NCBI GenBank assembly: GCA_014377495.1
Contig: JACMPN010000146.1
Coordinates: forward strand, 1-41,188
From: Candidatus Sericytochromatia bacterium
Lineage (GTDB): Bacteria; Cyanobacteriota; Sericytochromatia; JACMPN01
Reading direction: 5' to 3'
Length of the DNA: 41,188 bases
Under the pieces are notes generated by a model. It made no database searches and was not told the DNA's origin. It saw only the letters and a list, made by a program, of their open reading frames with translations. Every line of letters starts with the position of its first letter. Within the stretch, counting starts at the first letter, position 1. Positions 12,497 through 32,386 of this stretch are shown here, one piece after another. A program made the translations under genes and the position numbers.

Positions 12497-13726
12497 TTAA
12501 AACAGCAGGCGCTGTCGGCGCATGGCGATGCCCTGGATCAGGCCCAATGCCAGGGCATTGGCGAGCAGCGTGGAACCGCCGTAGGAGATGAGCGGCAGGG
12601 GGATCCCGGTGACTGGCATGATCCCTGTCGTCATCCCGATGTTGACGAAGACATGGAAGGCGAACATGGCGGTGACGCCAATGGCCAGCAGTGAGCCGAA
12701 GTCGTCTTTGGCCTGGGAGGAGATGACCAGGCAGCGCCAGAAGATGATCGCAAAAAGCACGACGAGGACGCACCCGCCGACGAAGCCCCATTCCTCGCCG
12801 ATGGCGGAGAAGATAAAGTCGGTCTGCTGCTCGGGGATGAAATGCAACTGGGTCTGGGTGCCGTGCAGCCAGCCCTTGCCCCAGAGGCCGCCGGAGCCGA
12901 TGGCGATCTTCGACTGCGTCAGATGGTAGCCGGCCCCCAAAGGGTCCCGTTCGGGGTCCAGGAAGATCGTCAGCCGGTTGCGCTGGTATTCCTTGAGCAG
13001 GCTCCATGCCAGGGGGATGGACAGGCCCCCGAGGAGGTTGACGATCCAGACGCCGATGGCCTGGCCGCGATGACGCAGCCGCCAGGCGAGCAGGCCGCCC
13101 AGGCCCAGCAGGTAAAGGATCCAGAGCGGGAAGTTCAGTGCATGCAGGATGGCGCTGACGAGCGGGCTGATGAGCATCGCCAGGATCCAGCCGTCGAGAC
13201 CGGCGCCCCAGAGCATGGCCAGCAGGATGGCGAGCAGGACCAGGCTGGTGCCCAGATCGGGTTGCTTGAAGATCAGCAGCCAGGGGATGCCGACGTGGAT
13301 GGCGACGGGGATGAGATCCAGGAGCTTTTGGGGTGGTTTGGCGGTGAGGGCGTAGGCCAGCGTGATGATCAGGAGGACCTTGGCGAACTCGGAAGGTTGC
13401 AGCGAAAAGCTGCCGATGCGGATCCAGCGCTGGGCGCCCAGCGCCGAATGGCCACCGACCATGACGGCGATGAGCAGGCCGAGATTCAGGGCGTACAACG
13501 GCTTGATCAGGTTTTTCAGCCAGGTGTAGTCCATGAACAGCATGACGAGGAAACCCACCGCCATGGGACCGGACCAGATCAGTTGCTGGTGCCAGAAGGT
13601 GATGCCGCTGCGGTGGTGGGTGACCGAATAGATGGCCGCCACACCGGCCCCATACAGGGCCAGCACGGCAGCCATCAGCAGCCAATCGAAGTTGCGGCCG
13701 AGCCGCAGCAGGTGAGACCAGTTCAT
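12497..13726 (-). CDS. rodA: SEDS-family peptidoglycan glycosyltransferase RodA
   Basis: 409-aa polytopic FtsW/RodA/SpoVE-type sequence (IGSGGLWGKGW, PVTGIPLPLISYGGS), in the same gene string as PBP2. Confidence 0.9.
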   Translation of the reverse strand: MNWSHLLRLGRNFDWLLMAAVLALYGAGVAAIYSVTHHRSGITFWHQQLIWSGPMAVGFLVMLFMDYTWLKNLIKPLYALNLGLLIAVMVGGHSALGAQRWIRIGSFSLQPSEFAKVLLIITLAYALTAKPPQKLLDLIPVAIHVGIPWLLIFKQPDLGTSLVLLAILLAMLWGAGLDGWILAMLISPLVSAILHALNFPLWILYLLGLGGLLAWRLRHRGQAIGVWIVNLLGGLSIPLAWSLLKEYQRNRLTIFLDPERDPLGAGYHLTQSKIAIGSGGLWGKGWLHGTQTQLHFIPEQQTDFIFSAIGEEWGFVGGCVLVVLFAIIFWRCLVISSQAKDDFGSLLAIGVTAMFAFHVFVNIGMTTGIMPVTGIPLPLISYGGSTLLANALALGLIQGIAMRRQRLLF

Positions 13727-13748
13727 GTGGCTCTCAGTCGACCGTGAC

Positions 13749-14075
13749 TCAGGTGCTGAGGTCGGCGGCGGCGGGTGCCTCGGCCTGGACGACGGCGTCG
13801 TCCACCCGTTTCTCGCGGACCTTGCGGATCGGGATGTTGGCGATCAGGGCCACCGAGCCGTCTTCCTTTTCGAGGTTGACTTCCAGGGCGTCCTGGTCGA
13901 TCTCCACGTACTTGGAGAGCACGGCGATCATGTCCTGCCGCATCTGTTCCAGCATCAGGCTGGGGATGTCGGTGCGGTCATGGAGCAGGACCAGCCGCAG
14001 CCGGTCCTTGGCGGTCGAGCGGGACGGGCTCTGGCGATTGAAAATGCGATCAATGAAACTGGCTAACACAGGCAT
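13749..14075 (-). CDS. minE: Cell division topological specificity factor MinE
   Basis: N-terminal membrane-targeting and MinD-contact region (SFIDRIFNRQSPSRSTAKDRLRLVLLHDR). Lies directly after minD. Confidence 0.93.
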   Translation of the reverse strand: MPVLASFIDRIFNRQSPSRSTAKDRLRLVLLHDRTDIPSLMLEQMRQDMIAVLSKYVEIDQDALEVNLEKEDGSVALIANIPIRKVREKRVDDAVVQAEAPAAADLST

Positions 14076-18347: not shown

Positions 18348-19268
18348 TTAAGTGCCCGTCACCACGGGCGTCGTCGGATCGTTGCCCCACTCCGCCCAGG
18401 AGCCGGCGTAGTTCTTGACGTTGGGATACCCGAGCAGGCGTAACACCCAGTAGGTGACGGCCGCCCGTGAGCCGCTCTGGCAATGGCTGATGACGGTCCG
18501 GTCCGGCGTGACGCCTTTGCGTAAATACAGAGTCCGCAACCGCTCCGGGTCTCCGAGGCGGGGCCCGTCAAAGTTCGTCTGCCAGTCGATGTTCACTGCC
18601 CCGGGCATGTGGCCCCCTCGGGCGGCCCGCACGTCGGAGCCGGCATGTTCGGCAGCACTGCGGGTATCGACCACCACGCTGTGGGGATCGCCGAGGGCGA
18701 CGATGCAGCCGGCCATCGTCTGCAAACGGCCCAGTTCCACCTTCGTCTGGAAGGGGCTGGCCCCGATCCTGGTCGGGACGGTCGTCATCCCACCCGCCAC
18801 GGATTGCCAGCCTTGCAGGCCACCGTCCAGGACAGCGACCTGGCTGCGTCCGAGCAGCTCCAACGTCCAGAACAAACGGGGGGCTGCCGTATCGCCACCT
18901 TTGTCATAGAGGATGACCCGTTTGTGCGTGCCGATCCCACTCGCACTGACCACTGCCGTCAGCCGGGCCACGGTGGTCGCTGCCGTCTCGGTGGGATCGG
19001 TCAACAACTGCGTCAGGGGCAGGCTGATCGCCCTCGGGATATGCCCCTGGGCATAGGCCTCGGCACTGCGGGCATCGACAACGATCAGGTCTGGCGACGA
19101 CAGGTGCGTCTTGAGCCAGGCAGCGGACACGACGAGGTCGGGTTGCGCAAAGCCGGGTGTGGCGGCAGTGGCTGCCAGCACGGGCACGGTCATGCCCAAT
19201 ATCACCGTCAGCCCGGAGGCCACAATCAGCCCGCCGCACCGGCGGGTCACATGCCGCTTCGTCATCAT
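18348..19268 (-). CDS. Tandem-rhodanese sulfurtransferase (thiosulfate/3-mercaptopyruvate type), probably exported
   Basis: Two rhodanese modules. Catalytic loop CQSGSRAA is in the C-terminal module. The N-terminus has an RR-containing signal-like sequence (TRRCGGLIVASGL...AATAA). Confidence 0.88.
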   Translation of the reverse strand: MMTKRHVTRRCGGLIVASGLTVILGMTVPVLAATAATPGFAQPDLVVSAAWLKTHLSSPDLIVVDARSAEAYAQGHIPRAISLPLTQLLTDPTETAATTVARLTAVVSASGIGTHKRVILYDKGGDTAAPRLFWTLELLGRSQVAVLDGGLQGWQSVAGGMTTVPTRIGASPFQTKVELGRLQTMAGCIVALGDPHSVVVDTRSAAEHAGSDVRAARGGHMPGAVNIDWQTNFDGPRLGDPERLRTLYLRKGVTPDRTVISHCQSGSRAAVTYWVLRLLGYPNVKNYAGSWAEWGNDPTTPVVTGT

Positions 19269-19322
19269 GGTGGTCTCCTCATCTGGGCAACGTCAGGAGT
19301 CGCTGCCACGCGGTATCGATCC

Positions 19323-21422: not shown

Positions 21423-22661
21423 TCACTCCGTGCGCAGGGCTTCGATGGGGCTCAGCTTGCTGGCCCGATAGGCCGGGTAATAGCCAAAGAAGATGCCGAT
21501 GGCGACGGAGATGCCCGAGGCCATGAGGATGCCCGTCCAGTCGATCGGCAGCGAAAAGGCCAGATCCGGCATGACCGCATGGATGATCAGGGTGCCCAGG
21601 GAACTGATCCCCAGACCGACGGCAATGCCGATGACCCCGCCGCAGACACTGAGGACGACGGCCTCGCAGAGGAACTGGCCGAGGATATCCCGTCGACGGG
21701 CCCCGATGGCCTTGCGCAGCCCAATCTCCTTCGTGCGTTCGGTGACACTGACGAGCATGATGTTCATGATCCCGATGCCGCCGACCAACAGGCTGATGGC
21801 AGCCACCGAACTGATCACCGCCGCCATGACGCCAGTGATCGAGTTGAACATGCTGACCAGGGACTCCAGCGCCTGCATGCGGTAGTTGCCCCGGCCGGCG
21901 TGCCGGAGCTTGAGGAAGCTGATCAGCTTGTCGGAGACGTCGTTCTTGACCGAAAGGTCGTTCACCTGGGCGCCGAGGGAATCGATGAATTGGGTTTCGC
22001 CGTCGATCATCATCGCCACGGTGTAGGGCATGATCAGCCTGCCGCCGTCCTCGCCCATCATGGCGACGAGCCCCTTGGGCGTTTTGACGAGACCGACGAT
22101 CGTCAGGTAGTTCGCCCCGAAGGTGAGTTCCTTGCCGAGGACAGACTCACCGGTGTCGAACAGCTGGTCGCGGAGAGTCTCGTCGATGACACAGACCATG
22201 CTGCGGGCCAGGGCGTCGTCCTCACTCAGATACCGGCCTACCAACACCTGGGTGTTGTTCAGGATCCGGGCGGCCTCGCCCTCGTTGCCCTGGGCCTCGA
22301 CGTTGCTGCCTTCCTTGTCTTGGAAGCGGACCTTGTGCTCGTCACGGCTGAAGTAGGTGAATGGGGTAACGTTCCGCAACTGGGGGAAGTGCTCCCGCAC
22401 GGCGACGATATCCTCGAGGGAGATGCGCGTGGTGATCCCCTGGGTGTGATCGTCCCGCCAGTTGCGCTGGATGCTGATCCCGTCGAGGGCGCCGTATTTG
22501 AGGATTTCCTGCGAAATCATCGCCCGACCGCCGCCGCCGACCGCCATAACGGTGATCACGGCAGAGACGCCGATGACCAGGCCAAGCATGGTCAGGGCCG
22601 CCCGAAACGTGTTGGCGAGCAGGGCCCGGACCGCCAGACGTAATAGTTGCCAGACATCCAT
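21423..22661 (-). CDS. MacB/DevC-type ABC transporter permease (FtsX domain with large periplasmic domain)
   Basis: N-terminal TM, a periplasmic domain of about 220 aa, and a C-terminal 3-TM FtsX module (ERTKEIGLRKAIGARRRDI). Confidence 0.9.
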   Translation of the reverse strand: MDVWQLLRLAVRALLANTFRAALTMLGLVIGVSAVITVMAVGGGGRAMISQEILKYGALDGISIQRNWRDDHTQGITTRISLEDIVAVREHFPQLRNVTPFTYFSRDEHKVRFQDKEGSNVEAQGNEGEAARILNNTQVLVGRYLSEDDALARSMVCVIDETLRDQLFDTGESVLGKELTFGANYLTIVGLVKTPKGLVAMMGEDGGRLIMPYTVAMMIDGETQFIDSLGAQVNDLSVKNDVSDKLISFLKLRHAGRGNYRMQALESLVSMFNSITGVMAAVISSVAAISLLVGGIGIMNIMLVSVTERTKEIGLRKAIGARRRDILGQFLCEAVVLSVCGGVIGIAVGLGISSLGTLIIHAVMPDLAFSLPIDWTGILMASGISVAIGIFFGYYPAYRASKLSPIEALRTE

Positions 22662-22761
22662 GGGTTAGAGGCTCGCATACTTTCGGACGGTGAGCCAAGC
22701 CGACAGGTTGGCGGTGCACTGAGGGGAGGGCAGATCGCCCGGGCGGCCGTCTGGCCATCGA

Positions 22762-22974
22762 TCACGTGGCGGCGGGTTGGAACTCCAACTTGGCGATGTG
22801 ACTGGGATTGATGATCGTCTCCATCTCGCCGGTGACGATGCTGACAGCGTGGCCTTCCAGCATGCCGGTGCGGATCTGGTTCATCATCGCCTCATCGCAG
22901 GTGAACACCCATTCCTGCTGGGTGTGGCCCCAGGTGATCCGGGAGAAAAAGGTTTTGGTGGCCGTCGTGGTCAT
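22762..22974 (-). CDS. Hypothetical 70-aa soluble protein
   Basis: Start at MTTTATK (residue 19 of the track ORF), with GAGGAG 6 nt upstream. It begins 16 nt after the SPASM gene stop. No TM segment or signal peptide. Confidence 0.55.
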   Translation of the reverse strand: MTTTATKTFFSRITWGHTQQEWVFTCDEAMMNQIRTGMLEGHAVSIVTGEMETIINPSHIAKLEFQPAAT

Positions 22975-22990
22975 GGTGGTCTCCTCACTG

Positions 22991-23641
22991 TCAGGGTGTG
23001 GTGCTGGCCGGCGGTGCATAAGGCGCACCCCCGTCCCGAACTGCTATGGCCAGGGCGTGGTCGCCCCGATCCAGCCACGAAACGGCCGGCGACGGGGCAT
23101 CCTTGGCTTCGATGACGCTCTCAAAAATGCCATGGTCAAAGGGAGCGCCGGGTGCGGCGTCCGTGCGGATCATCCGCTCGCGCAAGCCTTGCCGGTCATG
23201 CTCCAGGGCCCGGTGATGGCAGTATGGGTTGTTGCCCCGTTTGCCGTAAAACACGTGGGCCGTCCACGTGCAGCCGCCCCGGCACATTTTCTTGAACTCG
23301 CAGGTGCCGCAGAAGCCCCACAGGTGGGCAATGCTCTCCTCGGAATAGCGGAGAACCTTGTTCATCGGCAGCGGTTCAGTATGGGCCATGATGTCGGCCA
23401 GGCTCATGTCACGGATGTTGGCGCCCGTGTACGGGCCGGAGGGCAGCGAGGGGCAGCCCTTGATCTTGCCGTCGGCCTCGATGCCCAGGGCCTGGGTACC
23501 CGCCTCACAGCCGCTGTAGTAGACGCTGCCTTCGCCGCCGCGACTGAGCAGCAGCTGATCGTAGGGGCCGTAATAGCCGATGTTGTTGCCCGAGGCCATG
23601 CGGGTCCGGGAGATTCTCTGAAACCCGCCCGTGGAGGCCAT
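22991..23641 (-). CDS. Stand-alone SPASM-domain Fe-S protein (no radical-SAM core)
   Basis: Full seven-Cys SPASM pattern: C-x17-C including G-x4-C (SGCEAGTQALGIEADGKIKGC), then C-x2-C-x5-C-x3-C (FCGTCEFKKMCRGGC), then a distal Cys (NPYCHH). There is no CxxxCxxC anywhere in the 216 aa. Only about 29 nt separate it from the HlyD stop. Confidence 0.75.
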   Translation of the reverse strand: MASTGGFQRISRTRMASGNNIGYYGPYDQLLLSRGGEGSVYYSGCEAGTQALGIEADGKIKGCPSLPSGPYTGANIRDMSLADIMAHTEPLPMNKVLRYSEESIAHLWGFCGTCEFKKMCRGGCTWTAHVFYGKRGNNPYCHHRALEHDRQGLRERMIRTDAAPGAPFDHGIFESVIEAKDAPSPAVSWLDRGDHALAIAVRDGGAPYAPPASTTP

Positions 23642-23670
23642 TTTTAGCCAACTGTCGCATCGCCGGGATC

Positions 23671-25035
23671 CTACATGCGAACCTTCGGTCGCTTTGGGTT
23701 TGCCGAAGCATGGCTGCTGGTGTCCGACTCGTTGGGATCGGCGATCTTCAATAGCTTGTCCGCCTCGATCGGCTTGCCCTGACTGGCGACCACCTGATCG
23801 CCCACTCGCAAACCTGCGGTGATCTCGATGAACTGCGGATCGGCAATCCCTGTCTTGATGGTCACCTTTTTGGCGTGGGACCCGGCATCCAGCCGCCAGG
23901 TGTATTTCTTGCCCGCTTCCCCGGCGATGACGGCTTCGAGCGCCAGGGCGGGAACCTGTTTTTTCTCCTGCAGAATGATCTCGGCCCGCACGGTGCTGCC
24001 GGCCTTGATCCGCCTTTCCGGGCGGGTGAGGACCGCTTTGACGACGACGGAGTTATATTCGTTGCGGCGGTTCGTTTTTTCGGCGATCGGCGTGATCAGC
24101 GAGATGATGCCTGTCAGTTTTACGTCCGGCAGGGCCGTCGTCGTCACCAGGACCGGCATCCCCGTGCGGACTTTGACGGCGTCCAGTTCGTTCACTTCCA
24201 CGCTGACGATCTGCCGGGCGTCGTCGGCCAGGTCATAGAGGACTGTCCCCAGGGTCAGCGACTGCCCGGTCAATACTTTCAGGCGGCTGACGAGACCGTC
24301 CTGCGGGGCACGGACGGTCAGCCGGGCCACTTTGGCTTCCAGGTTGCGCACCTTTTCCCCGGCGGCGGCGACCTTGGCTTCCGCCAGTTTCAGGGCGTTT
24401 TCCGCCTGGACGATTTTCAGCTGGGCCGCCCGGACGTCCCCTTCCGCTTTGGCGACCTCGAGGCGGCTTTTGTCCCGTTTGGCTTTGGCGGAATCGAGGT
24501 TGATCCGGCTTTCCGCCTTGGCATCGAAGAGCATCTGCTTCATCGCCAGTTCGCCGTCCGCTTCGGTCAGGCTCAGGCGAGCCTGGGCCACGGCATTGCG
24601 GGCATGAGGCACACCGATCTGCCGGGCATCCTGCAGCTTGTAGCGGGCCTCGACCAAGTCGCTCTTTTCGACCTGCACATAGCTGTCCCGGGCCTCGGTG
24701 ACTTGGCGCATCAGCTCGGGATCGCTCAGGCTGGCCACCGTCTGGCCGGCCTTGACGTGATCGCCCGCCTGCACGTACAGCCGGGTGATGAAGCCGGCGA
24801 CCTCGGCGATGATCGGCCGCTCCGACAGCGGTTCGATGGCCCCGGCGATCCGCAGCGACTCCGCCACATCCCGGGCGGTTACCGTGTAGGCCTGCACCTT
24901 CAGGGGCTGGGCCTGGCGCGGCCAGAAGAACCAGCCGAGTGCCCCGGCGAGCACGACGCCCGCCGCGATCCAGGCTGTGCGCTGGCGCTTCGGCGGTGCC
25001 GGCGGCAGGGGGGACTCGATGCGGTCGGGGGTCAT
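23671..25035 (-). CDS. HlyD/MacA-family periplasmic adaptor (membrane fusion protein)
   Basis: N-terminal anchor, lipoyl/barrel segments and a long Ala/Lys/Glu-rich coiled-coil hairpin. ATGA overlap with the upstream TolC-like gene. Confidence 0.9.
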   Translation of the reverse strand: MTPDRIESPLPPAPPKRQRTAWIAAGVVLAGALGWFFWPRQAQPLKVQAYTVTARDVAESLRIAGAIEPLSERPIIAEVAGFITRLYVQAGDHVKAGQTVASLSDPELMRQVTEARDSYVQVEKSDLVEARYKLQDARQIGVPHARNAVAQARLSLTEADGELAMKQMLFDAKAESRINLDSAKAKRDKSRLEVAKAEGDVRAAQLKIVQAENALKLAEAKVAAAGEKVRNLEAKVARLTVRAPQDGLVSRLKVLTGQSLTLGTVLYDLADDARQIVSVEVNELDAVKVRTGMPVLVTTTALPDVKLTGIISLITPIAEKTNRRNEYNSVVVKAVLTRPERRIKAGSTVRAEIILQEKKQVPALALEAVIAGEAGKKYTWRLDAGSHAKKVTIKTGIADPQFIEITAGLRVGDQVVASQGKPIEADKLLKIADPNESDTSSHASANPKRPKVRM

Positions 25036-26387
25036 GGTTGCTCCTTCGTGGGCGCAGGGGTGGGGGGGAGCGCGCTCGGTTCGGCCAATGGTCGGCCCAC
25101 GGCCTGATAGAGGCGGGCCGCCGCCACGAGGTAATCGATGGTTGCTTCCAGGTTTTCGGTCAAAGCCGAGACCAGGGCCCGCTGCACGTCGTTGACGTCG
25201 GTGATCACCGCCGCCCCCAGCTTGTAGCGCATGGCCATGATGTCCCGGGTGCTCCGAGCGATCTCGATCGAGCGCCGCAGACGGGAGAGCCGGCTGGCGG
25301 CACTCGTCAGTTGGGCGTGGGCCTGATCCACGTCCGTCTTGATCTGCCGTTTTGTCTGGGTCAGATCCAGTTCGGCACTCTCGATCGTCAGGGCCGCTTC
25401 CTGCATGCGCCGCCAGGTCTCGGCATTGTCGAAGAGGTTGTAGGTCATTGTCGCCCGGCCGTCGAAGGTGCCTTCGAAAGCCGCCAGGACGTTGTTCGAG
25501 CTTGCCAAGGGGCGGAACGGGTTGTTGCCGTACTGGTACTGGGCCGTCAGGGCGAACTCCGGAAAGAGCTTGCTGCGGGCGATGGTCAGGCCGGCTTTGC
25601 CGGCGTTCAGGCGGGCATCCGCCGCCTGGACCTCCGGGCGTTGGCGCAGGGCCCGGGCCAGCCAGATCTCCCGCCCCTCGTCGGGGATCGCCTGAAACTG
25701 CGGGTCGTCGCTGAGGGTCCAGGTATCGTCATTGCGGAAGAGCAGATTGCCGAGCCGGGCCCGGGCTACCTGCATGTTGCCCTCGTTGCGGATCAGGCCC
25801 GCCTGGGCACTGATCAGGGTCACCTCGGCCCGGTTCACGTCGATCGGGGCGATGGCGCCCGCCCGCAGCCGGGTCTTGGCCAATGCGTGGATTTCCTCCG
25901 CCTGTTTCACCTGATCCTGGTTGACCAGATAGAGCTTTTGCTGCCGCTGGTTGTCCCAATAGGCCTCAATCACCGACAGGGCCACGTTCTGCCGGGTGGC
26001 GAAGAGGGTGGCTTTCCGTTCGGCGACGCCCTGTTCCGCCCGTTCGATGCTGCCTGTGATCCGCCAGCCGGTGAACAAAGGCACGCGCAACGTGCTGTTG
26101 GCGTTGACGAAGAGGACGTTCTGGTCCTTTTGACTGGCCGTCGTCATCCCGGAGACGGTGTAGTTGTCGCCCCCGTTCAGATCGAGGCTGAGGCTGGCCC
26201 GCTGGAACTGGGCCCGCCAATAGTCGATGTCCGCCTGACGGACCTGCACGTCCTGATTGGCGATGCTCGGGTTGTGGGCCATGGCCTGGCGCAGGGCGTC
26301 GGCCAAAGACATCGGCTCGGCGTGGGCCATGGCCGTCAGCATCAGCCAGACGGCGACGGCAGGGGCCAGGCGGTGGAGACGGATCAT
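25032..26387 (-). CDS. TolC-family outer-membrane efflux protein
   Basis: Signal peptide (MIRLHRLAPAVAVWLMLTAMAHA) followed by two TolC/OEP repeats. Start is at residue 12 of the track ORF, forming an ATGA overlap with the ATPase stop. Confidence 0.88.
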   Translation of the reverse strand: MIRLHRLAPAVAVWLMLTAMAHAEPMSLADALRQAMAHNPSIANQDVQVRQADIDYWRAQFQRASLSLDLNGGDNYTVSGMTTASQKDQNVLFVNANSTLRVPLFTGWRITGSIERAEQGVAERKATLFATRQNVALSVIEAYWDNQRQQKLYLVNQDQVKQAEEIHALAKTRLRAGAIAPIDVNRAEVTLISAQAGLIRNEGNMQVARARLGNLLFRNDDTWTLSDDPQFQAIPDEGREIWLARALRQRPEVQAADARLNAGKAGLTIARSKLFPEFALTAQYQYGNNPFRPLASSNNVLAAFEGTFDGRATMTYNLFDNAETWRRMQEAALTIESAELDLTQTKRQIKTDVDQAHAQLTSAASRLSRLRRSIEIARSTRDIMAMRYKLGAAVITDVNDVQRALVSALTENLEATIDYLVAAARLYQAVGRPLAEPSALPPTPAPTKEQP

Positions 26388-27142
26388 GTCAGCCCCTCGT
26401 GCGGCGGCGGGGTCTTGCACTCGTCGGACAGGATGCGGCCGTCCCGAAACCGGATGATCCGCCGGGCCCAGTCGGCGACTTCCTGCTCATGGGTCACGAG
26501 GACCACGGTCATGCCCTCCTGGTTCAGGTCGCGGAACAGTTGCATGATCTCCAGGCTCGTCGTGCTGTCCAGGGCGCCGGTCGGTTCGTCGGCCAGCAAC
26601 AGGCGTGGGCGGTTCACCAGGGCCCGGGCGATGCTCACCCGTTGCTGTTGGCCGCCGGATAATTGGTTCGGCATGTGCGCCATCCGGTCGCCCAACCCCA
26701 GGCGTTGCAGGGCCGCCGCCGCCCGCACCTGTCGCTCGGCCGGTTTGACCCCCGCGTACAGCATAGGTTGTTCCACATTTTCCAAGGCGGTCGTCCGGGG
26801 CAGCAGGTTAAAAGACTGGAAGACGAAGCCGATGTACCGGTTCCGGATCTGGGCCAGGTCGTCTTCACTGCGGTTGGCCACGTCCAGCCCGGCCAAGCGG
26901 TAAAGACCGGCGTTCGGGGTGTCGAGACAGCCGACCATGTTCAGGAACGTCGACTTGCCGGAGCCGCTGGTCCCCATGATGGCGACGAAATCACCCTCGG
27001 CGATCGCCAGCGAGACATCCTGCAAGGCCCAAACAGGCTGCTCGCCACGGTGGTATACCTTGCTGAGGTGGCTGATCTCAATCAGCGGCGGCATTTCAGG
27101 CGTCATCGCCGGCAGATTAACAGATTTCCGGTTGGTCGGCAT
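26384..27142 (-). CDS. ABC transporter ATP-binding protein (MacB/LolD/DevA type)
   Basis: Walker A GTSGSGKST, Q-loop, signature LSGGQQQRVSIARAL, Walker B LLLADEPTGALD and an H-loop VTHE. aggtg lies about 7 nt before ATG 27142. Confidence 0.95.
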   Translation of the reverse strand: MPTNRKSVNLPAMTPEMPPLIEISHLSKVYHRGEQPVWALQDVSLAIAEGDFVAIMGTSGSGKSTFLNMVGCLDTPNAGLYRLAGLDVANRSEDDLAQIRNRYIGFVFQSFNLLPRTTALENVEQPMLYAGVKPAERQVRAAAALQRLGLGDRMAHMPNQLSGGQQQRVSIARALVNRPRLLLADEPTGALDSTTSLEIMQLFRDLNQEGMTVVLVTHEQEVADWARRIIRFRDGRILSDECKTPPPHEGLT

Positions 27143-27232
27143 TTTGTGACACCTGACAAGAAAGGGTTAAGTCGGGGTAGTGTTTTGCTGAAACGGGGTC
27201 AGGTTTGGGGTGTGGAGGTGGATGAGCAAGGC

Positions 27233-28369
27233 ATGACCACCTTACGTACGATGGCACCCACCGCACCGCCCGAGGCGGCGACGACGGTGGCTGCGGCTGC
27301 TGCCAGGTTCCCCCGGTCCAAGACAGCCATGGCCGCCGTGCCGGCCGTCGCCGATCAGGTGCGGGCGTCAACGGCCAAGACGGATCGCCCGGCCATCGAC
27401 AAGTCCCTTTTCGCCGTGGTGGTCAGCCCGGATCGCGCTCACACTTTTGCGGACATCCAGCCGGATCAGATGCGGGCCATCAACAGTTGGCGGGAACTGC
27501 CGGCCATCCTCCAGGCACTCAAAACCCGCAGCCAGGCTACCGGTCAGGTGGTGGTGCTTGATTTGGCCGTCCATGGAAACAACGGCACGGGTCTCAAAGT
27601 CGTCCACGGCAGTGCCAAAGGCGACGTGGCCAGTGTCACGAGCATGGCGGAGGTCAACCGCATGGTGCGGTCGGCAGGGTTTGCCCCCGGCGAGATCGTC
27701 ATCCTGACAGAGGGGTGCAACGTCCACCGCAGCTGGACGAACAGTGCGGACGGCTTTACCGCTGCCGAAAAGGCGGGCGTCCTGCATCAGGCGGAGCGTC
27801 TGGCGACCGGCCATGGCCAAAAGCTGGCATCCACCCCGGAGATTGTCGACTCGGGTCCCACCCAAGTGGACAAGGACTATCAGTGGCTGGGGCGTGGCCC
27901 CGGCACGAACTGGATCAGCACCGTGTTCCTCCAATATGTCACCGGTGCTGAAGAGGGCGCCCCGTTGGAGGATCTGCGCCGGTACAAGGACCCCAAGGCC
28001 CCGCTGGCGGCCCAGACGGATGCGGTCATGCTGGTGGCCGGTATGCGCCCGCAGATGATTGCCGCCATCCAGGAAACCCGCTTTGGGGTTTCCGCTACCG
28101 CCACGCCGGGCGCCGCCACCGGTGCCCGCCGTTTCGTCGACCGGATGTCGATCCGCTCGACGCCGGCCACCCAGCAAACGGCCGACGACTCGGAAGGGAC
28201 GTCTCCCGAACCCACCAGGGTTCCCGGGGCAACGGCGCCCGTGCAGCCGGCGACGACCGACTCTCTGCCGGCGACGAAACCGGTCAAAAAGCCTGTAGAC
28301 AGCATCCAGACCGGTTTGCGGTTCATCGATCGTCTCCGTCGGACCCCGGTGGCCACATACCAGCCCTAA
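27233..28369 (+). CDS. Hypothetical protein (378 aa) with a Pro/Thr/Ala-rich tail
   Basis: Only the part of the 568-aa track ORF not antisense to the ATPase gene is taken. Start is at MTTLRT (residue 191); in-frame GTGs at 27212 and 27218 are alternatives. No confident family. The motif VVVLDLAVHGNNGTGLKV is faintly DUF4347-like. Confidence 0.6.
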   Translation: MTTLRTMAPTAPPEAATTVAAAAARFPRSKTAMAAVPAVADQVRASTAKTDRPAIDKSLFAVVVSPDRAHTFADIQPDQMRAINSWRELPAILQALKTRSQATGQVVVLDLAVHGNNGTGLKVVHGSAKGDVASVTSMAEVNRMVRSAGFAPGEIVILTEGCNVHRSWTNSADGFTAAEKAGVLHQAERLATGHGQKLASTPEIVDSGPTQVDKDYQWLGRGPGTNWISTVFLQYVTGAEEGAPLEDLRRYKDPKAPLAAQTDAVMLVAGMRPQMIAAIQETRFGVSATATPGAATGARRFVDRMSIRSTPATQQTADDSEGTSPEPTRVPGATAPVQPATTDSLPATKPVKKPVDSIQTGLRFIDRLRRTPVATYQP

Positions 28370-30238: not shown

Positions 30239-32386
30239 TCAGAAAGGGTTGAAGCCGGGCGGAATCGGGATCCCGTAGTTCTCAAAGGAATCCAGGACCC
30301 GGGGCCGCAGGGGGCTGACCGCAAAGGACCCCTCGAGTTTGCCGCCTTCCTTCGTCTGGACGGCCTCGTACGTGAAAATGTCCTGCATGGAGATGATTTC
30401 GCCCTCCATGCCGATGATCTCCGAGATCTTGGTGATCTTGCGGCTGCCGTCCCGCATGCGGGCCTGGTGGACGATCAGGTTGATCGCCGAGGCGATCTGC
30501 TCGCGGATGGCCCGGACGGGCAGGTCCATGCCGGCCATCAGGACCATCGTCTCCAGACGGGCGAGGGCATCCCGGGGGCTGTTGGCATGACCCGTGGCCA
30601 GGGAGCCGTCGTGGCCCGTGTTCATGGCCTGCAGCATGCCCAGGGCTTCGCCGCCCCGGACTTCGCCGACGATGATCCGGTCGGGACGCATCCGCAGGGA
30701 GTTGCGGACCAGCTCGCGGATCGTCACGGCCCCCTGGCCCTCCATGTTCGCCGGGCGGGACTCCAGTGTGATCACGTGGTCCTGCATCAAATTCAGTTCG
30801 GCGGCGTCCTCGATCGTGACGATCCGCTCGTCCCGCGGGATGAAGCTGCTCAGGATGTTCAGCAGGGAGGTTTTGCCGCTGCCGGTACCGCCCGAGATGA
30901 AGATGTTCAGCTTGGCCCGCACGGCCCCGTCGAGAAACTCGGCCATCGTGTCGCTGAGCGTGCCGAAGCGGAGGAAGTGATCGACCGTCATCCGTTCGGC
31001 GGGGAACTTCCGGATGGTCAGCGTCGAGCCGATCAGGGCCAGCGGCGGGATGATGATGTTCACTCGGGAGCCGTCCGGCAGGCGGGCGTCGACCATCGGC
31101 GAGCTTTCGTCGATGCGGCGGCCCAAGGGCGCCACGATGCGGTCGATGACGACCCGCAACTGCTTTTCGTCCGTGAAGAACAGGCCCGAGTTGAGCAGTT
31201 TGCCTTTTTGTTCAACGAAGATCTGGTCCGGTCCATTGACCATGATTTCACTGACCGAGATGTCCCGCAGCATGGCTTCCAGCGGGCCGTAGCCCAAGGC
31301 CTCGTCGACGACCTCCTCGATCAGCCGCTGCCGCTCGGTGCGGCCGGCCAGTTCCGGGACGTCGCCCTCGACGATCTTGGCGATTTTCTCGCCGACCTTC
31401 TGGCGCATCGCCGCCCGTTTGACGGAGTCGCCCTGGAGATCGACCTCGCTGAGCTTCATTTCCCCGACGAGGCGGGCATGCACCCGCCGGCGCAGGACCC
31501 GGTAGGCTTCCCGGGCCTCATCGCCGAGGACGATCCCCGTCGACACACTGGCCGGGGTGGCGGCACCGCCGGCCGTGGGGGTGTAGCCGAGATCGATGGC
31601 GGCCTGCTGGCTGGCCGTGGATGGTGCCGGGGGCGAGATGTGAGCCGTCTCCAGGGACGGGACCTGCATGACGTGCTGGGCGACGAGTTTGAACATCGGG
31701 GCCAGGGCCGTGCGGGTCGGGTTCGCCATCAGCGGCAGGCCCCGGTTGATGCTGGTCAGGACTTCGGTGAGGTTGTACGGAAACTCGAAGCTGACCGGCC
31801 GCCCGAGGATTTCCGCCATGTCCTCCAAGGGGATGTCCCGGGTCATGTCGGCCATGTTCACGACGAGGCGGAAGCGCTCCGGCGGAAAGCGCAGCTCGCT
31901 CATCCGTTTCAGGACGAAGCGGGCCTGCTGCAGGGCATTGATCTCAGGGGTGAAGACGATCAGGACCAAAGCCGAATGATCGAAGAGGGTCGGCAGCGGA
32001 TCGGCGAGATGGGGGGCATGGGCGTCGATCACCGTCAGCGGCCGCACTTCGGCCAAGGGCTGCAGGACCCGGTACAGCGACGAGGCGTTCATTGCCTGGC
32101 CTTCGAACGGAGCGGCGAGCAGGTCGATCCCGTGTTTCGTCGGCAGGAGGAAACCTTCGACGTCGGCCGGCGTCGGGGAGCCTGCGGCGAGGAGGCTCCC
32201 GAGATTGCGGTCTTTCGGATCGATGTCGAAAAAGCTCGCCAGGCTGCCGCCCCGGTAGCAGTCGAGGTCGACGAGACCGACACGTTGCCGGGACTCCTGA
32301 GCTAGGGCGAGCGCCAGATTCGTGGCCAAAAAGCTGGTGCCGACGCCCCCTTTGGCGCCGTACAGGGTGATGAACTTGGCTTTCAC
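30239..32386 (-). CDS. Fusion protein: MinD/ParA-like (CpaE/TadZ-like) domain + CpaF/TadA-family type II/IV secretion ATPase
   Basis: Residues about 1-250 have [16 protein letters not shown] and a MinD/ParA fold pattern. An Ala/Pro/Thr linker follows. The C-terminal half has Walker [19 protein letters not shown], Walker [12 protein letters not shown] and a His box [15 protein letters not shown] start. Confidence 0.85.

Follow-up and report, generated by a model that had tools for sequence, protein, structure and literature searches.

The 216-aa open reading frame (ORF) located between an HlyD adaptor gene and a 70-aa ORF in the window (the whole stretch of DNA analyzed here, 41,188 nucleotides) is very probably the 3' half of a gene for a PlpX-like radical SAM/SPASM peptide maturase, left behind by a deletion. 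In the sequence of events that we propose, a tripartite ABC efflux operon would originally have housed, between its genes for the HlyD adaptor and the MacB-type permease, an ancestral three-gene cassette, consisting of an A gene (for a precursor with XYG repeats), an X gene (for the radical SAM/SPASM enzyme) and a small accessory gene. A deletion with a net size of about 1.4 kb would then have taken the precursor gene together with the first ~224 codons of the enzyme gene, which would have encoded the SAM-binding 4Fe-4S motif plus most of the TIM barrel, and would have become fixed in the population. The evidence consists of a series of syntenic loci, a point at which homology restarts exactly, and the lack of both the radical SAM core and the precursor in the window. 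The features concerned are listed in Table 1.

Table 1. Positions of the truncated gene, its junction and the surrounding operon in the window
Feature	Position	Strand	Basis or remark
ABC transporter ATPase (MacB/LolD-like), first gene of the operon	26384..27142	minus	PF00005, E = 1e-32
TolC-like outer-membrane efflux protein (OEP)	25032..26420	minus	PF02321, E = 3e-54; TIGR01844, E = 4e-44
HlyD/MacA-type periplasmic adaptor	23671..25035	minus	HlyD_D23, E = 1e-21; TIGR01730, E = 1e-40
Deletion junction, 71 nt (29 nt intergenic plus 14 codons, MASTGGFQRISRTR)	23600..23670	minus	blastn breakpoints against L052
5'-truncated PlpX-like radical SAM/SPASM (splicease-type) remnant, 216 aa (probable)	22991..23641	minus	TIGR04103 and alignments with L012 and L052
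GAGGAG ribosome-binding site of the small ORF	22981..22986	minus	read from the sequence; six nt before the ATG
70-aa cassette accessory protein (putative), directly downstream of the enzyme gene	22762..22974	minus	homologues follow radical SAM/SPASM genes
MacB-type permease (MacB_PCD + FtsX), last gene of the operon, followed by cysS	21423..22661	minus	PF12704, E = 6e-30; PF02687, E = 2e-21

The 216-aa ORF carries the complete seven-Cys SPASM pattern, the one for two auxiliary 4Fe-4S clusters, that the earlier note had read from the sequence, with Cys residues at positions 45, 63, 111, 114, 120, 124 and 141 and the spacing C-x17-C with G58-x4-C63, then C111-xx-C-x5-C-x3-C124, and a distal C141. 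The two SPASM models proposed there as a check gave different outcomes: TIGR04085 scored 44 bits (cutoff 27), but PF13186 reached 20.8 bits, marginally under its cutoff of 21.5. Also in agreement with the earlier note, the ORF contains no CxxxCxxC motif, and its ATG (at 23641) is separated from the HlyD stop codon (23671-23673) by a short gap, noted as about 29 nt and measured as exactly 29 nt. The best enzyme family match, TIGR04103 (E = 6.6e-72, 242 bits), covers only model positions 216-387 of 412, without a full-length match and below the equivalog cutoff of 725 bits; TIGR03913 likewise matches at model positions 231-405 of 477 only. Within the ORF, homology to the family occupies 22991-23599, starting from Met15 (MASGNNIGYYGPY), and residues 1-14 (MASTGGFQRISRTR) have no homology to it. 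The GC content at third codon positions (0.81 and 0.83 for the 216-aa and 70-aa ORFs, respectively, in a window of 64% GC) shows the bias of real genes. The SPASM frame is open upstream of the ORF start. For this reason an HlyD-SPASM fusion made by frameshifting was weighed, and it was dropped as no signal supported it.

The same efflux-pump locus was found in three states. At the empty site, represented by L053 and L054, the gene order is ATPase-OEP-HlyD-permease-CysS-RNaseIII-EamA-PBP, and the permease ATG comes immediately after the HlyD stop (…CAATAGATGG…). At L052, the same flanks enclose a full cassette, with genes for proteins of 199 aa, 426 aa (Radical_SAM) and 72 aa between HlyD and the permease. 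In the window, the flanks are again the same, and the HlyD-permease interval holds just the 216-aa and 70-aa ORFs. Aligning the window with L052 by blastn gave two blocks, one, which ends inside the HlyD gene, pairing window 25046-23783 with L052 9990-11250 and the other pairing window 23600-21409 with L052 12865-15052 (74.5% identity); the interval between them is about 1.6 kb in L052 versus 182 nt in the window. Between the HlyD stop and the Met codon that both share lie 1,503 nt in L052 and 71 nt in the window. Homology picks up at CATGGCCTCGGGCAAC, which is the Met225 codon of the L052 enzyme (window 23600 = L052 12865). The 71-nt junction stands in for about 1.5 kb of L052, comprising the gene for the precursor and the first 224 codons of that for the radical SAM enzyme, and it has no homologue in the L052 cassette, with blastn-short giving chance words alone. 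As the blastn breakpoints fall in this manner and window Met15 aligns with residue 225 of the 426-aa L052 enzyme, the 199-aa gene and enzyme codons 1-224 have been lost from the window. A truncated maturase was one of the readings offered in the earlier note, and it is borne out by the presence of the full-length gene at the same place in L052.

Since the window comes from a 41-kb contig, presumably metagenomic, and several related database entries are frameshifted, the truncation might be suspected to be a product of misassembly or of a chimera. However, L002, an independent assembly from a different sample, carries the identical HlyD / 29 nt / ORF junction at 99.8% nucleotide identity, differing from the window by five SNPs over 2,124 nt. 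The truncation is therefore not an assembly artefact; an error of this kind is extremely improbable.

The intact relatives contain what the window lacks. The motif CNLACNHC stands at residue 22 of the 426-aa L052 enzyme, whose TIGR04103 match spans positions 3-387 with 598.8 bits. Over the full 202-column alignment, the window ORF is 77% identical to the L052 enzyme and 78% identical to that of another locus, L012, and BLASTP against the L012 enzyme gave 81% identity over residues 15-208. At L012, the enzyme (at least 382 aa, being cut by the contig start) is followed by a 71-aa gene overlapping it by 4 nt and then by a 412-aa MacB permease; the counterpart of window Met15 is an internal residue of this enzyme (…EDGIVMASGNNIGYF…). 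At L013 and L014, a 417-aa Radical_SAM protein is followed by an 86-aa gene, and at L013 the 417-aa protein is preceded by a 256-aa protein with APMYGMP repeats, with no pump there. As the TIGR04103 scores of the intact enzymes of L052 and L013 (599 and 615 bits) are below the equivalog cutoff (725), the two are placed in a sister clade of TIGR04103. A metagenome scan with the L012 enzyme recovered relatives at about 50% identity only, and no closer syntenic locus. A sequence search of the PDB gave matches confined to the radical SAM core region (SkfB, BlsE and PqqE), the part that is absent from the window.

When five full-length homologues were compared with the window by tblastn, the C-terminal half was found at 23042-23656, and no radical SAM N-terminal half was found anywhere in the 41 kb. 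No PMYG, APMY or MYGM motif occurs in any frame of the window, nor is there an ORF for an XYG-repeat precursor. The SPASM half could in principle act in trans if other parts of the genome encoded a core half to work with and a precursor, as two-ORF versions do exist among the relatives (L009-L011, with 227 + 190 aa in three samples) and as the genome search was confined to 41 kb. Such a split enzyme is nevertheless very unlikely. The halves seen in these relatives are adjacent, overlapping products of frameshifts rather than dispersed genes; the syntenic L052 enzyme is one full-length polypeptide, and the L012 homologue has at least 382 aa; the break is inside the enzyme and not at a start having its own ribosome-binding site; and the window lacks the precursor gene as well as the core half.

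The earlier note had also offered the reading of a free-standing auxiliary-cluster protein and had proposed a survey for a conserved family of ~200-aa SPASM-only homologues. When 5.8 billion proteins were searched, there were 663 matches, among which the full-length members are about 377 aa long with PF04055; the survey then concerned the short (~200 aa) matches situated on long contigs. Among these, the sole other copy in the arrangement of the window is L002 (protein 99% identical; 99.8% at the nucleotide level). In the next relative, L001 (69% identical), the SPASM ORF is overlapped by a Radical_SAM ORF of 180 aa, and tblastn showed L001, L007, L008 and L009-L011 to be full-length genes split by frameshifts. 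The SPASM-only entry at L004 is cut by the contig end, and those at L003 and L005 are truncated genes, starting at residues 223 and 145, respectively, with unrelated surroundings. Thus, no conserved free-standing lineage of ~200-aa SPASM-only proteins in a recurring context was found among the short matches on long contigs. The likeness of the breaks in the window (residue 225) and in L003 (residue 223) was considered as a functional domain boundary and set aside; as matches of about 200 aa were picked, their starts are biased and this likeness is uninformative.

Families with a seven-Cys SPASM domain and no CxxxCxxC motif are known: the GeoRSP SPASM protein (TIGR04304), the pseudo-SAM/SPASM protein (TIGR04347) and the grasp-with-spasm protein (TIGR04193). 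These are conserved lineages that keep a full-length N-terminal domain, whereas the N-terminal domain of the window ORF was lost by a deletion that is visible in the synteny. Against these three models the window ORF scored 17-26 bits, the cutoffs being 175-525.

The remnant is intact, with no stop codon and no frameshift, and all seven Cys residues are retained; it agrees with the consensus at all 57 of the 57 family positions that are at least 95% conserved. Pairwise dN/dS values are 0.19 for the window and L052, 0.17 for the window and L012, and 0.23 for L052 and L012, and relative-rate tests on the remnant showed no acceleration. The lack of decay together with a low dN/dS fits a recent deletion and fits retained constraint equally well. 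A pseudogene had been pictured in the earlier note as a copy whose closest homologues are all full-length enzymes and which shows a recent 5' deletion with decaying sequence; the closest homologues are indeed full-length or frameshift-split and the 5' deletion is present, but the sequence is not decaying. As the remnant has no decay, the deletion is probably recent. The two differences between the window and L002 within the remnant are both non-synonymous (L107M, in the conserved HLWGFC motif, and S184L), whereas all three in the neighboring genes are synonymous; with such small numbers the contrast (2/2 versus 0/3) is not significant.

This state of preservation speaks for an alternative in which the SPASM protein stands by itself, works with the 70-aa protein and was retained because of a new function, such as carrying electrons by means of its Fe-S clusters or serving as a scaffold that binds peptides. 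If the SPASM half and the 70-aa protein were kept as a working module, for example as an Fe-S redox or peptide-binding unit for the MacB-type pump, the complete absence of ORF decay would be accounted for. The intact ORF with its seven Cys and no conserved position lost, the dN/dS of 0.17-0.19, the strong ribosome-binding site retained by the small ORF, the occurrence of the arrangement in two samples (window and L002), and the start of L003, another true 5'-truncated copy, near the same residue are all consistent with this. However, both the new function in general and the pump-associated module in particular are unlikely. The 5.8 billion proteins include a single other copy with the same arrangement, and this is 99% identical; in the next relative the gene is full-length but frameshifted, and the radical SAM half lies beside the SPASM half; the remaining SPASM-only matches come from genes split by frameshifts, from a fragment at a contig end, or from truncated genes with unrelated surroundings, and the shared break of L003 is subject to the bias described above. 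Elsewhere, the small-protein family always stands behind a full-length (or contig-cut) enzyme. Both of the recent SNPs in the remnant are non-synonymous. Finally, neither of the two candidate starts of the 216-aa ORF has a Shine-Dalgarno motif; the L052 enzyme gene, by contrast, has GAGG upstream.

Returning to the deletion remnant, we consider that the truncated protein cannot carry out radical chemistry and is most likely non-functional. As the permease gene lies downstream, the remnant would still be transcribed, passively, along with the pump operon.

The 70-aa ORF begins 16 nt past the stop codon of the remnant and is identical in L002. Its GAGGAG ribosome-binding site and its single Cys (within VFTCDEAMM), both described in the earlier note, were confirmed, and AGAGGAG is present at the equivalent place before the 72-aa gene of L052. 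The homologues found are P0122 (71 aa, 62% identity), the 72-aa protein of L052 (60%) and P0123 (86 aa, 34%); their genes are each directly after a full-length (or contig-start-cut) radical SAM/SPASM gene, at L012, L052 and L013, respectively. Together with the window protein they make up a small family of four members with invariant positions including E21, W22, F24, N56, P57, H59 and I60. The Cys is not among the conserved positions, Cys26 being replaced by Ser in P0123. A word-indexed search with the 70-aa protein returned only itself, and P0122 and P0123 came from an exhaustive HMMER search. Two other HMMER candidates, P0124 (an RCC1-like repeat protein) and P0125, were rejected as false positives inflated by repeats. 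A genome scan with the small-protein alignment found the L013 MAG only. None of the four members matched Pfam at E <= 10, and the 70-aa protein had no match in NCBIfam. AlphaFold2 predicted a beta-beta-alpha-beta-beta-beta topology for the 70-aa protein, with a moderate pLDDT of 78 from a three-sequence alignment. Foldseek comparison of this model with the PDB gave no match to PqqD, and the best match, Rv3208A (E = 0.04), was unconvincing.

L053, where there is no cassette, lacks the small gene, and L013, where there is no pump, possesses it; the gene is therefore part of the cassette and not of the pump. The earlier note had named the 70-aa protein as the obvious candidate for a partner or substrate of the SPASM protein. 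The first holds only in the sense of an accessory gene of the intact cassette; the second does not hold, as the 70-aa protein is not the substrate, the substrate of the intact relatives being a separate protein with XYG-motif repeats encoded upstream. In the window, the 70-aa gene would be an orphaned accessory gene whose enzyme and substrate are gone.

The proteins encoded upstream of the enzymes contain five copies of QPVYGAPI(R/L/M)K in L052, seven of APMYGMP in L013 and three of IAPMYG in L001, and next to many of the relatives with ~50% identity there is a YG-rich ORF (PPYG, AAYG). The family name of TIGR04103, "nif11-class peptide radical SAM maturase 3", is in keeping with the Nif11 domain of PlpA3, and we take IPR026482 to be the InterPro entry for TIGR04103. 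PlpX has been assigned to IPR026482 (PMC11002830). PlpX-type spliceases are radical SAM/SPASM enzymes that act on XYG motifs, and the small gene plpY is directly downstream (PMC11414181, PMC5995677, PMC11002830). The cyanobacterial type I systems need this small "Y" protein, whose gene comes immediately after plpX, and non-cyanobacterial spliceotide systems have been reported without Y (PMC11414181, PMC5995677, PMC10849128). An engineered splice tag, PIRPGYGLPI (PMC10533398, Table S3), resembles the QPVYGAPI and APMYGMPV repeats.

On the strength of homology and motif resemblance, the intact cassette most likely represents a cluster of the spliceotide type that belongs to a sister clade. It would be predicted to yield a spliceotide-type product by excision of tyramine (a loss of 135.06 Da) at XYG. 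The gene order of L052, with an XYG precursor, a radical SAM/SPASM enzyme and a small gene, is like that of PlpA/PlpX/PlpY in Pleurocapsa sp. PCC 7319, and TIGR04103 as the best enzyme family match links the cassette to spliceotide clusters in general (PlpA/PlpX/PlpY and the binary RhaXA/RcsXA). However, there are several differences: the precursors of the relatives are long and multi-repeat (3-7 XYG sites) and have no Nif11 leader; the cassette lies within an operon for a MacAB-TolC-like pump rather than next to a C39-peptidase exporter; and the copy in the window has neither the precursor nor any of the radical SAM core, and therefore cannot be a working splicease. From its place in the gene order, the 70-aa protein is a positional analogue of PlpY, with homology undetectable: the small protein has no similarity to PqqD or to the cyanobacterial Y-like proteins, and hhalign of the small family against the cyanobacterial Y-like pair (after the L004 and L005 enzymes) gave a probability of about 0.

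The ORF studied here is an ordinary remnant of a known kind of RiPP cluster, not a new kind of iron-sulfur protein, and in itself it matters little. It does show that a "SPASM-only" ORF can be the fresh product of a deletion and need not represent a new protein architecture, and that many of the SPASM-only database entries encountered here are artefacts of frameshifts or contig ends, which calls for caution in genome mining. Three by-products may be of modest interest for the study of ribosomal peptide natural products: one efflux-pump locus in three states, with an empty site, a full cassette and a decayed cassette; a cassette whose clade is spliceotide-like and has XYG precursors with multiple repeats; and a previously undescribed small accessory family in the PlpY position, outside the cyanobacterial type I clusters, where the literature reports no Y protein (PMC11414181, PMC5995677, PMC10849128).

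As for the host operon, its order on the minus strand is ABC ATPase, TolC-like OEP, HlyD adaptor, 216-aa ORF, 70-aa ORF and MacB-type permease, and then cysS. A scan of the operon for promoters and terminators gave matches not above the expectation from shuffled sequences. The flanking genes fall in the same families as those of MacAB-TolC and DevBCA-type pumps and look intact, but the operon, unlike those of these pumps, has the remnant of the cassette inserted between its adaptor and permease genes. The ABC ATPase matches the N-terminal part of MacB (E = 1.4e-83) and is syntenic in L052 and L053, and the HlyD orthologues of L052 and L053/L054 are 69-72% identical to that of the window. All four components of a tripartite ABC pump (ATPase, permease, adaptor and OEP) are present in this one operon with strong E-values.

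Across related genomes, one and the same locus was found in three states: an uninterrupted pump operon, a pump operon with a full three-gene spliceotide-like cassette in the interval between the adaptor and permease genes, and, in the window, an operon with a decayed cassette (see the table). In the part shared by the window and L052, the syntenic locus with the full cassette, conservation is slightly higher for the cassette protein (77%) than for the pump proteins (70-73%). A possible reading of this difference is that recombination in the pump genes carried the cassette from one genome to another.

Features of the pump locus and its relatives
Feature	Locus	Coordinates	Strand	Remark
State 1, uninterrupted pump operon	L053	10001-12604		also L054
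State 2, full cassette	L052	10001-15039		
State 3, decayed cassette	window	21423-25035		
Small-protein gene	window	22762-22974		
Small-protein gene	L052	13485-13703		
Small-protein gene	L012	1146-1361		
Small-protein gene	L013	3829-4089		P0123
Putative precursor	L052	11521-12120		
Putative precursor	L013	1791-2561		
Putative precursor	L001	3305-3709		
YG-rich ORFs downstream of enzyme	L023, L033, L035, L037, L038, L043, L045			
ParA/CbiA-T2SSE fusion gene	window	30239-32386	minus	
ParA/CbiA-T2SSE fusion gene	L052	4463-6607		
ParA/CbiA-T2SSE fusion gene	L053	1717-3864		
Long ORF divergent from pump operon	window	27209-28369	plus	GC3 0.73, coding-like

Each putative precursor is a long protein of multiple repeats (QPVYGAPI, APMYGMP or IAPMYG) that carries 3-7 XYG sites. 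Relatives at about 50% identity carry YG-rich (PPYG/AAYG) ORFs 3' of the enzyme gene, the N-termini of which are lipoprotein-like.

In this clade, the gene directly 3' of the rSAM/SPASM gene encodes a family of small proteins (70-86 aa), unannotated until now. Searches of Pfam and NCBIfam gave zero matches for this family, nor does it resemble the cyanobacterial Y-like proteins. As non-cyanobacterial spliceotide systems are reported to lack a Y protein (PMC11414181, PMC5995677, PMC10849128), the small proteins may represent an unrecognised accessory factor. One distant member, P0123, carries VYG (in KLVYGASD), an XYG motif resembling those of the precursors, where the other members have (V/T)WG. 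This likeness is probably coincidental, since the model places VYG within a beta-strand.

In L052, the stretch after the small gene (13704-13800) contains a GC-rich hairpin with a perfect 12-bp stem (GAGGCCGGTTCC…GGAACCGGCCTC) and then CTTTCTT, which together look like a terminator closing the cassette; no equivalent is present in the 100-nt spacer after the small gene in the window. Within the window, the same 16 nt, TGAGGAGACCACCATG, comprising a ribosome-binding site and start, occur at 22972-22987 and 19266-19281, preceding the 70-aa ORF and a rhodanese gene (18348-19268), respectively.

Several database homologues (P0015, P0029, P0031, P0076 and P0085), cyanobacterial by name or apparently so and all on long contigs, begin at reference residue 43-47, just past CxxxCxxC, some with a GTG or TTG start. 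The pattern suggests that the starts were mis-called or that the SAM-cluster motif is lost through a stop or frameshift further upstream. In L009 (1297-2533), the enzyme gene is split by a frameshift into a 227-aa rSAM ORF and a 190-aa SPASM ORF with a 20-nt overlap. As the identical split is present in L009, L010 and L011, which come from three separate metagenome samples, it is a real allele rather than a sequencing error.

A conserved 715-aa protein has an N-terminal ParA/CbiA-type P-loop domain fused to a T2SSE secretion ATPase domain, and its gene is adjoined by genes for PD40/Tricorn-like and TPR proteins. The long divergent ORF of the window had no match in a Pfam search; an unannotated gene for 395-411 aa occupies the counterpart position in L052 and L053.
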